From IMG/VR virus record IMGVR_UViG_3300029305_003800, positions 35,787-99,786 of that record: a DNA stretch of 64,000 nt; one strand, 5' to 3'. The stretch is from a virus (Duplodnaviria > Caudoviricetes). Shown in pieces: positions 55,848 to 57,313 of this stretch. Made by a program: the position numbers and the translations under genes. How positions within the stretch are numbered: position 1 is the stretch's first letter; each line of letters starts with the position of its first letter. The notes beneath the pieces are model-generated. The model searched no databases, was not told the origin of the DNA, and saw only the letters and a list, made by a program, of their open reading frames with translations.

Positions 55848-55875
55848 TTGAGCGAAGAATTAGATCGCTTATAAT
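55848..55875 (+). promoter_or_regulatory. TTGAGC-N16-TATAAT promoter of the non-coding RNA unit
   Basis: motif matches the genome-wide class; no RBS or ORF follows. Confidence 0.65.
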
Positions 55876-55936
55876 AAAATAGAACAGCGAAAAATAGTCA
55901 GTTATAAACACAACTGCAAATAATAAGTCTGTTCTA

Positions 55937-56380
55937 ATGTTGAGGTGGTGACAGAACACTGCTTGACGGCAGTAATGTATACAGTCTTGGAGATTGAAAT
56001 ATCTGTTGAGTGTTGATGAGCACAAACAAGAATGTAGTTGGTCATTATAATTCAGTAAAGACATGAGTGCGACTCGGGTTAGGAACATCTCCCATCTGAC
56101 ACGGAGGGATGAGTTATAAATATGTTCCAGTGAATTCCTAGGCAGTTGATACACAGTAATGTGCGTATAAGAGTGTGGCATTCAGTTCTTGGGGACAAAT
56201 CTGCTAAGTGAGGATAATATTATAAAAACAGTTTTAGTATTCTACCAGTCAGTCTCTGAGTTGGAGGTGAAAAGTCCTTCAGTCTTACATAAAGCACAAG
56301 CGTAATTAACTTGTGTGTCTTGGTCGAACATATTGTGTTATAATGAACTTGAGAGACTTGGTAAAATGTCTCTCCCACAT
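55937..56380 (+). ncRNA. large structured RNA, ROOL-like
   Basis: Nested long-range helices (56042-56050/56338-56346; 56058-56064/56315-56321; 56082-56088/56122-56128). Motif series AATTCAGTAAA, GGGTTAGGAA, CAGTGAATT, AAGAGTGTGGCATT, GACAAATCTG, GGTGAAAAGTCC resembles ROOL as recalled; not searched. Confidence 0.55.
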
Positions 56381-56381
56381 G

Positions 56382-56440
56382 TGAGCAATTAAATAAGAGA
56401 GTTCTTAAAAAGAATCTAGTGCAAGTCTAGAATTGCTCAA
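56382..56440 (+). ncRNA. tRNA-like mini-element lacking a D-arm
   Basis: TGAGCAAT/ATTGCTCA stem next to a TCTAG-TGCAAGT-CTAGA T-arm. Confidence 0.35.
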
Positions 56441-56535
56441 TAATTTGAAATTTGTTTTTCATTATGACTTTTCTCCTTTGTAAGTTTTAGAGATAAAAGT
56501 CAAAAGTCATTGGCAAGTTGGACTCTAACTAATTT

Positions 56536-57146
56536 GACTACATGTTCTATTTATAGCGACTCAAAGAGTTGAAAAATGCATGTAGTTCGTCTACGGAACG
56601 GGCAGTAGAGGTCGCAGTAACCTTAGAAAGCAGGATATCTTATCAATAGAGCATTGAGGTAAGATAACTAAGAACAAGATGCTCAATATGATATCCACTA
56701 TAGGTGGCAGGAGAAGAGCAGAATATCCTGAGTTCAAAACAATTCTGACTGCTTGTAACAATTTGGAATTGTTTTTATCATCTATACTTAAAGAGATTTA
56801 ATTTAGGGCAGGACTAAAGTAGATGACCAGTGAGTTGAGAGTTTTGTTAGGAATACTTAGAACAACTCAAATGGAGACAAGGGCAAGAATGTTGCACTAC
56901 TGTATATGTTAGATGAATTCATAGTTTGATATATACGATTAGTAGAGATCTCGCTCAGGAGATGAGAGTTAAAAAGAGGAACCTAGTCACTGTATTCAGC
57001 AGTTTGAAACGAATACAAGTGGACAATAACTGCACGATATATCTGACGGGAGGGAAAGACCTCCATGCATGAGATATAGCACTAGGTGCATTATTAATTA
57101 GCGAACCATTAATAATGGGTTAGAGCAAAACTAACATATCTCACCA
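56536..57146 (+). ncRNA. second large ornate RNA, family unassigned (GOLLD-like or novel)
   Basis: more than ten helices and two pseudoknot-type pairings; ORF-free; more GC-rich than the coding DNA. Confidence 0.55.
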
Positions 57147-57287
57147 GTAGAGAAATGATTGTAATTTTAGAATTGTTTGATATAAGTTAGAGATAGATTA
57201 GTTGTGATTTTGAGAGAGTTTTTGATTTTGTTTTGTTCAGAGATTGTAAGATAAAGTTATCAACGATCATTTCTTTACGCCATTCAT

Positions 57288-57313
57288 AGACTCCATATAG
57301 GTGGAGTCTTTTT
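57288..57313 (+). terminator. intrinsic terminator ending the ncRNA unit
   Basis: AGACTCCAT-atag-GTGGAGTCT plus T-tract. Confidence 0.8.

Follow-up and report, generated by a model that had tools for sequence, protein, structure and literature searches.

A dedicated non-coding RNA unit ahead of the packaging genes of an uncultured phage, and its candidate new family of large ornate RNA

Why should a phage genome with almost no space between its genes keep 1,522 nt without a protein-coding gene just ahead of its packaging genes? The question is raised by the virus IMGVR_UViG_3300029305_003800 (Duplodnaviria; Caudoviricetes), an IMG/VR record of 99,786 bp and about 30% G+C that CheckV rates complete and in which the + strand carries all long open reading frames (ORFs). 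The last 64 kb of this record were analyzed here and are referred to as the window, and all coordinates are positions in it. The stretch in question, 55811-57332, is a dedicated non-coding RNA unit. Read on the + strand, it holds a 438-nt ornate RNA, which we call element A (55943-56380), then a tRNA-like element, a second folded domain (element B), a 3' domain and a terminator. Its RNA is present in RNA libraries, and there the contig over A is the deepest. An initial annotation, made from the letters alone, had placed several structured RNAs in this one non-coding stretch, and separately conserved folded RNAs do lie between a promoter region and the terminator.

The gap is flanked by a 67-codon gene, which stops at 55810, and a 73-codon gene, which begins at 57333. 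Within it no + strand frame exceeds 51 codons, and reading through any single stop codon, as under a reassigned code, opens none. The sole longer frame is an antisense ORF of 115 codons (55834-56181), which might be taken as a sign of decayed coding sequence or of small-protein genes. We consider such an origin vanishingly improbable, given that stops break this ORF in every relative, that no single stop reassignment opens a frame, and that substitutions keep base pairs rather than codons. The whole genome has only three gaps of at least 250 nt without a + strand ORF (279, 672 and 1,522 nt); the present one is by far the largest, and the 672-nt gap surrounds the only tRNA gene. G+C content is 34.9% in the stretch as compared to 29.7% in the window, with a like increase in each of the six relatives measured. 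The large terminase (TerL) gene lies downstream at 59145-61196, with small genes before it. Four early claims, namely that the stretch has no credible ORF, that intergenic space is nearly absent elsewhere, that the stretch is richer in G+C, and that it sits just before the packaging genes, were thus borne out.

Judging from its terminase sequence, this cattle-rumen phage is a member of an uncultured clade, since its large terminase is at most 28% identical to any from GenBank phages. Near-identical DNA was seen in metagenomes of 13 studies (bovine gut, faeces and related). Relatives were traced through TerL homologues, on contigs of about 50-100 kb, and members of the A family in the related loci were detected with an nhmmer profile. 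Eight relatives with TerL identities of 66-78% (L005, L007, L008, L009, L010, L012, L023 and L024) have a gene-free gap of 1.4-2.3 kb at the corresponding position, with the same series of small genes and then TerL downstream of it. When GTDB genomes were scanned for the invariant motifs of A, the matches were L020 and L021 (truncated), both contigs from metagenome bins, and L022, a duplicate of the L005 contig. The relative closest by terminase, L004 (81% identical), has a gap of merely 370 nt (L004:1864-2233), and no such gap was found within 7 kb of TerL in the clades of L013-L016 (TerL 53% and 42% identical). Searches of IMG/VR by TerL alone and by a TerL alignment, from which close records may have been missing, gave relatives only 24-26% identical and no new members, and blastn of the stretch against 50,697 GenBank phages gave no match. 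Pattern scans with the invariant A motifs also hit two sites inside ORFs in IMG/VR and one JGI metagenome sequence with no similarity to A; these three matches were judged to be chance.

Element A is the sole part of the unit common to all nine full members, at 66-74% nucleotide identity. From an alignment of nine sequences (A5), RNAalifold derives a fold of 20 helices and 117 pairs with four multistem junctions, closed by a helix, P1 (55943-55948 with 56375-56380), that joins both ends of the element. Standard pairs fill 96.0% of the cells of this fold, as compared to 41-44% when the partners are slid by one to three columns. Compensatory changes occur in 74 of the 117 pairs, against 35 ± 4 in shuffles, and none of 500 shuffles reaches any of the observed covariation measures. 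A GNRA-capped hairpin (56152-56163) covaries fully. The fold contains 128 G-U cells but only 9 A-C cells, a bias that assigns the RNA to the + strand. Five single-stranded motifs are invariant: GCAGUUGA (56142), UAUAAGAG (56166), UACCAGUCA (56243), UGGUCGAA (56321) and CUUGGUAAA (56357). A large folded RNA had been proposed at this place, and strong covariation over 55943-56380 supports it.

Two pseudoknots within A are candidates. In the first, PK1, GGCAG (56141-56145) would pair with CUGCU (56201-56205). The two sides are paired in nine of nine sequences and three pairs change on both sides, two of those three owing to L020; with changes from very few sequences, the case for PK1 is thin. In the second, PK2, UACCAG (56243-56248) is complementary to UUGGUA (56358-56363) and invariant in the nine sequences, so that covariation speaks neither for nor against it.

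Six RNA runs contain part of the stretch, and four of them, from four studies, were mapped over 46000-64000. Each of the four studies yielded a contig over A: 55867-56357 (depth 33.7), 55858-56339 (143), 55859-56213 (76) and 55945-56421 (16). Depths over the later parts are 2.7-8.9, with contigs over B at 56397-56713, 56404-56706 and 56513-56687 and one over the 3' domain at 56841-57036 (depth 8.9). The remaining phage contigs in 46000-64000 have depths of at most 5.7. The upstream genes at 54414-55615 have zero contig depth, which, as in other parts without RNA contigs, is not to be read as silence. From part to part of the unit, depths vary by a factor of about 3 to 25. Such unevenness within a single phage argues against carry-over of DNA, and the differences fit one precursor cut into RNAs of differing stability. 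Most of the strain differences within A affect unpaired positions or leave pairing intact (as in changes of A-U to G-U or of G-U to A-U), and one run, X19, carries a double compensatory change at 56047 with 56341. The initial annotation had proposed a polycistronic operon processed into several RNAs; the folded RNAs, the RNA in four studies and the uneven depth support it, and its processing is a prediction.

Three nucleotides after P1 of element A begins the tRNA-like element (56383-56439), supported by covariation in an alignment of seven sequences (A6). An acceptor-like stem of 8 bp, GAGCAATT with AATTGCTC, is followed by an invariant 11-nt linker, AAAUAAGAGAG; after it come a variable hairpin of small size and a T-like stem of 4 bp, whose 7-nt loop is UGCAAGU. 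In L005 this loop reads UUCAAGU, a canonical T-loop. A D arm, an anticodon arm and an encoded CCA are missing. All cells of the 16 pairs in A6 are paired, and 10 of the 16 pairs show compensatory changes, which bears out the tRNA-like element that had been proposed here. Stacked on each other, the acceptor-like and T-like stems add up to 12 bp, the length of the corresponding stack in tRNA, and together with the 7-nt U...A T-loop they give 56383-56439 the features of a minihelix. The tRNA model RF00005 gave no match to the element at E <= 10, and ARAGORN called no tRNA there at default or 75% thresholds. At the lowered thresholds ARAGORN made three spurious calls elsewhere. True tRNA genes do occur within the same gap in seven relatives. 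In L007, L008, L009, L012 and L024 they precede the promoter boxes, and in L005 and L010 they follow element A; the gap of the window phage has none.

Two relatives bear on whether A is needed. In L024 (L024:2793-2910) about 410 nt of the A core are cleanly deleted between two CTTG repeats, and the stubs of P1, the tRNA-like element and element B are kept. L004 is without A and the tRNA-like element. Both retain an orthologous packaging module, with TerL 71% and 81% identical and the portal present, which argues against an essential or packaging-motor role. By this distribution A appears to be a dispensable accessory element. The same comparison bears on the idea that A or B is an RNA of the packaging motor or of the virion, by analogy with the pRNA of phi29. 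The location of the unit directly upstream of the terminase/portal module suggests such a role. We nevertheless give it very little chance, since L024 and L004 keep TerL and portal with the core of A or the whole of it gone, TerL is a conventional large terminase, and no similarity to pRNA was found in Rfam.

To which family might A belong? The initial annotation called it ROOL-like. ROOL (Rumen-Originating, Ornate, Large) RNAs were described by Weinberg et al. (2017; PMC5737381) and average 581 nt and have six multistem junctions as well as three pseudoknots (PMC5737381); cryo-EM has shown an octameric cage (bioRxiv 10.1101/2024.12.08.627333). Both ROOL and GOLLD occur in phages or prophages, close to tRNA islands; ROOL reaches high abundance without being essential, and the linker of GOLLD sometimes contains tRNAs (PMC5737381; bioRxiv 10.1101/2024.12.08.627333). 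Element A shares this niche: it is found in the rumen, is phage-borne, lies beside tRNA genes in relatives, is abundant and appears dispensable. It is likewise a many-helix RNA with multistem junctions, its pseudoknots being candidates, and for neither ROOL nor A has a protein partner or a function been established. A differs in its size (438 nt vs. the 581-nt average) and in its four rather than six junctions, and in place of three pseudoknots it has one weakly covarying and one invariant candidate. It has no detectable homology to ROOL in sequence or structure, and its unit continues with a tRNA-like minihelix and more folded domains. GOLLD is similarly a large phage or prophage RNA near tRNA islands, and the tRNAs in its linker resemble those of L005 and L010, which lie between A and the 3' domains. 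According to its published description GOLLD expression climbs late in infection, and the unit of the window heads the late region. In the present family it is the 5' domain (A) that is conserved and the 3' domains that vary; GOLLD shows the opposite.

Searches with covariance models agree with these differences. At the gathering score, an Rfam scan of the window returned only tRNA-Leu (49182-49265), and the 15 related loci gave tRNAs only and no ROOL. The GOLLD model RF02032 (416 positions, cut-off 150 bits) had no match at E <= 10 in the whole genome, with 19 candidates scored. The ROOL model RF03087 (574 positions, cut-off 99.1 bits) had none either under the same terms, in a search made without a positive control, and this limit counts against the separation of A from ROOL. 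Permissive filters at E <= 10 over 55700-57450 produced only three miRNA/snoRNA matches, attributed to chance, and a 14-bit match to a group II intron piece (RF01998) elsewhere in the genome is irrelevant. The cmscan check that had been suggested therefore ended without any Rfam family matching the stretch, and of the ROOL likeness only the niche and the ornateness remain. A family resembling A is absent from Rfam 15 and GenBank phages; the 8,495 IMG/VR motifs of a 2023 catalogue (PMC10690425) were outside this comparison. With no match to ROOL or GOLLD and yet a shared niche, A is, by its sequence and predicted fold, a new family of the ROOL/GOLLD kind and a member of neither. That A is instead a highly diverged or shortened ROOL or GOLLD member would account for the common habitat and phage-borne, tRNA-adjacent, abundant and dispensable character, as well as for an ornate fold with multistem junctions and candidate pseudoknots. 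The blank models and the difference in length and architecture make this highly unlikely.

What, then, does the unit do? The reading we favor, with moderate confidence, is that cutting of a precursor RNA at the tRNA-like element frees a stable RNA, which then acts in trans. Processing signals of tRNA shape at the 3' ends of other RNAs are familiar from mammalian MALAT1/mascRNA, from the tRNA-punctuation model and from the stable RNAs of the phage T4 tRNA operon. As in these systems, a tRNA-shaped element directly follows a stable non-coding RNA, an RNase P cut would set the 3' end of the latter, and RNAs would be co-transcribed with tRNAs. The element of the window differs from them by its missing D and anticodon arms and encoded CCA, and cutting here is predicted. 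Its position three nucleotides after A makes a role as cutting signal plausible. A single precursor would extend from the promoter region at about 55836-55875 to the end of the terminator at 57309. Of the tRNA-processing enzymes of the host, RNase P would cut on the 5' side of the tRNA-like element, at about 56382/56383, and RNase Z after the discriminator base. Released in this way, A would have its ends locked in P1 and guarded by 5' hairpins, and so would accumulate. In the units of relatives, true tRNA genes may play the same punctuating role. Once free, A would act in trans as a compact and stable particle of RNA, of the same type as ROOL and GOLLD, and would aid infection as an accessory rather than an essential factor. 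Because of the company A keeps in these genomes, our best guess for its target is the tRNA and translation machinery, or host defences aimed at it.

Several observations weigh against this release of A from a precursor, and the first concerns the start of transcription. A sigma-70-like promoter, TTGAGC-16-TATAAT, agrees with the consensus at 10 of 12 positions (55848-55875), and TTGAG with TATAAT or TATACT is kept in L005, L008, L009, L012 and L024, though not in L007 and L010. In L020 a near-consensus TTGACA-17-TAATAT stands directly before P1. TTGAG...TATAAT was not enriched in the window, in a search whose pattern had a spacer one base too long. A little upstream lies a candidate -10-like element, the 9-nt box AGTAATAWT (55836-55844), kept in eight of the nine relatives lined up (L024 has AGTAATTAT and L020 AAGTAATTTT) and likewise not enriched in the window, with five matches against 5.3 expected. 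In three studies the first base of the RNA contig is at 55858-55867. These positions precede the -10 box of the sigma-70-like promoter (55870-55875), conflict with the start expected from that promoter at about 55882, and fall 14-23 nt downstream of the AGTAATAWT box. Either transcription begins earlier, or low-level upstream transcripts extend the contigs, and we are uncertain between the two. The sigma-70-like promoter may thus not be the only start, or not the true one. A class 2 promoter had been named as the start of the unit; a promoter-like site is present at 55848-55875, and the start point itself is uncertain, with contigs that begin upstream of it.

The remaining points concern the RNA evidence, the fold and the cutting signal. 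A single precursor, a cut at the tRNA-like element and the start point are all provisional, as the RNA evidence consists of assembled contigs, in which RNA ends are invisible and contig ends are weak hints only. The runs were chosen because they contain the stretch, and RNA levels can be read only roughly from contig depth. The folding energy of A alone resembles that of shuffled sequence (z -0.16), and the case for its fold therefore rests on covariation. Finally, the tRNA-like element is absent from L010, L020 and L023, which keep A, so it is not the universal maker of the 3' end of A.

The 3' border of the unit introduces a further alternative. An intrinsic terminator at 57288-57309 (+ strand; 9-bp stem, 4-nt loop, TTTTT) was found by pattern scan, with a z of -4.30. 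Its position is kept and its stem differs, each time with a T-run, in the window, L007, L008, L009, L010 and L012; L005 has a different arrangement there. This conservation of place with changed stems confirms the strong terminator read from the sequence at the outset. Its end is 23 nt from the start codon of the first late gene (57333), right against the ribosome-binding site of that gene, and no promoter was predicted in 56782-57429. With no promoter after the terminator, the packaging genes would be reached by read-through or from inside the unit. The unit might accordingly be taken as mainly a cis-acting leader of the late operon, its folded RNA and terminator serving as a timing or attenuation device and its stable RNAs being by-products, much as in the lambda PR'-tR' '6S' unit or the put/EAR-type antitermination RNAs. 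The lack of room for a late promoter, such that late genes must be reached by read-through, is consistent with this, as are the position before the packaging genes conserved in eight relatives and the short gap of L004, which holds only the 3' hairpin of B. We still think a leader unlikely to be the main function. A length of 438 nt with 74 covarying pairs and candidate pseudoknots exceeds what any known attenuator needs, the depth over A is well above that of the downstream leader and late genes, L024 and L004 have lost A and retain the packaging module, and true tRNA genes lie within the unit in relatives. Release of a trans-acting A leaves a part for the terminator, which would also set the level of transcription into the packaging genes.

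A different function in trans would be that of a decoy. A and the tRNA-like element could soak up a host tRNA-directed nuclease, a modifying or processing enzyme, or a ribosome-linked defence factor, and so shield the translation of the phage in late infection. In favor of this are an acceptor/T-arm stack and T-loop kept without an anticodon arm, the locus shared with true tRNAs, the abundance of the RNA and an accessory distribution typical of counter-defence genes. The phage-borne Y RNAs of the YrlA type, which Ro60/Rsr binds, are comparable: they too mimic tRNA and combine a closing stem with a T-arm-like module. Y-RNA models of Rfam had no match at E <= 10 in 55700-57450, and the genome has no gene for Ro60 (TROVE), a search in which control genomes gave matches. 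Proteins neighbouring the unit include none with an RNA-related domain and no conserved protein partner. With no binding partner, host or defence system identified, no Ro60 in the genome and no conserved protein partner beside the unit, and the tRNA-like element absent from three members that keep A, we regard a decoy as a rather doubtful explanation.

We accord a similarly small likelihood to a bolder reading of the unit, in which A would represent a third unrelated class of RNA-only phage machine, either a multimeric shell like those of ROOL and GOLLD or a ribozyme, cut late in infection from a tRNA-style operon by the tRNA-processing enzymes of the host. If true, such RNA particles would have arisen in rumen phages more than once.

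Few bacterial or phage RNAs that lack a known function are as large as ROOL and GOLLD, whose cage-like structures were solved only recently. With A, a third unrelated family joins the same niche, which points to a general selective need in phages, not the quirk of one family. At 438 nt, A is a smaller and tractable test object that is readily found in rumen metatranscriptomes. L024 offers a natural knock-out for comparison with intact relatives, and the tRNA-like element is a testable processing signal. With the first late gene behind its terminator, the unit may also be coupled to the late-expression switch.

The other folded parts of the unit vary in their support. Its 5' leader forms a hairpin at 55881-55937 on the + strand (TAGAACAG with CTGTTCTA; minimum free energy -12.8 kcal/mol, z -3.63), which is covered by high-depth RNA contigs. 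Relatives have shorter leader hairpins of different sequence in the same place. The hairpin had been recognized from the sequence, and the z of about -3.6 agrees. Element B (56495-56836, + strand) is indicated by covariation, folding energy and RNA contigs, with compensatory changes in 29 of 70 predicted pairs across five sequences and a minimum free energy z of -3.55. The best-kept piece of B is its 3' hairpin (56777-56826, loop GGCAGGA), the one part that L004 retains (about 50 nt, loop GGCGGGA), with compensatory changes. This hairpin may have its own role just before the late genes. In the 3' domain (56836-57150, + strand; minimum free energy z -4.42, and an RNA contig), a block of 25 nt, GGAGACAAGGGCAAGAAUGUUGCAC (56873-56897), is common to L007, L008, L010 and L024, and the rest is specific to the window phage, with a fold backed by energy. 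A second ornate RNA had been predicted downstream of A; for 56495-56836 covariation supports it, and for 56836-57150 folding energy does (z -4.4). Two smaller predictions fell away. The anti-RBS (ribosome-binding site) hairpin at 56455-56515 is at chance level (z -0.8) with no counterpart in relatives, and the C-free loop, a run of 92 nt at 57146-57237, is not kept in relatives and is expected by chance, as shuffles of this C-poor window gave longest runs of 85 nt on average and up to 126 nt.

Some minor features were seen around these loci. The TerL genes of L005 (8001-11060), L010 (7001-9430), L012 (7001-9445) and L023 (6001-8421) are lengthened by Hint/intein domains, in L005 also with LAGLIDADG, and TerL of the window is without any self-splicing protein element. 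Just upstream of the RNA gap of L023, with one 52-codon gene between, lies an RNA ligase gene (L023:2689-3339, Pfam RNA_ligase), unlike in the window, where no RNA ligase gene neighbours the unit. The L015 contig folds back at 12025-12090, and its genes recur reversed after position 12,090, probably because of an assembly palindrome. The window also has a second non-coding island, at 48800-49471, around tRNA-Leu UAA (49182-49265), the only tRNA gene of the phage; the flanks of this gene are present in the RNA libraries of three runs (contigs 48539-49106 and 49369-49610, depth 2.7-5.7).

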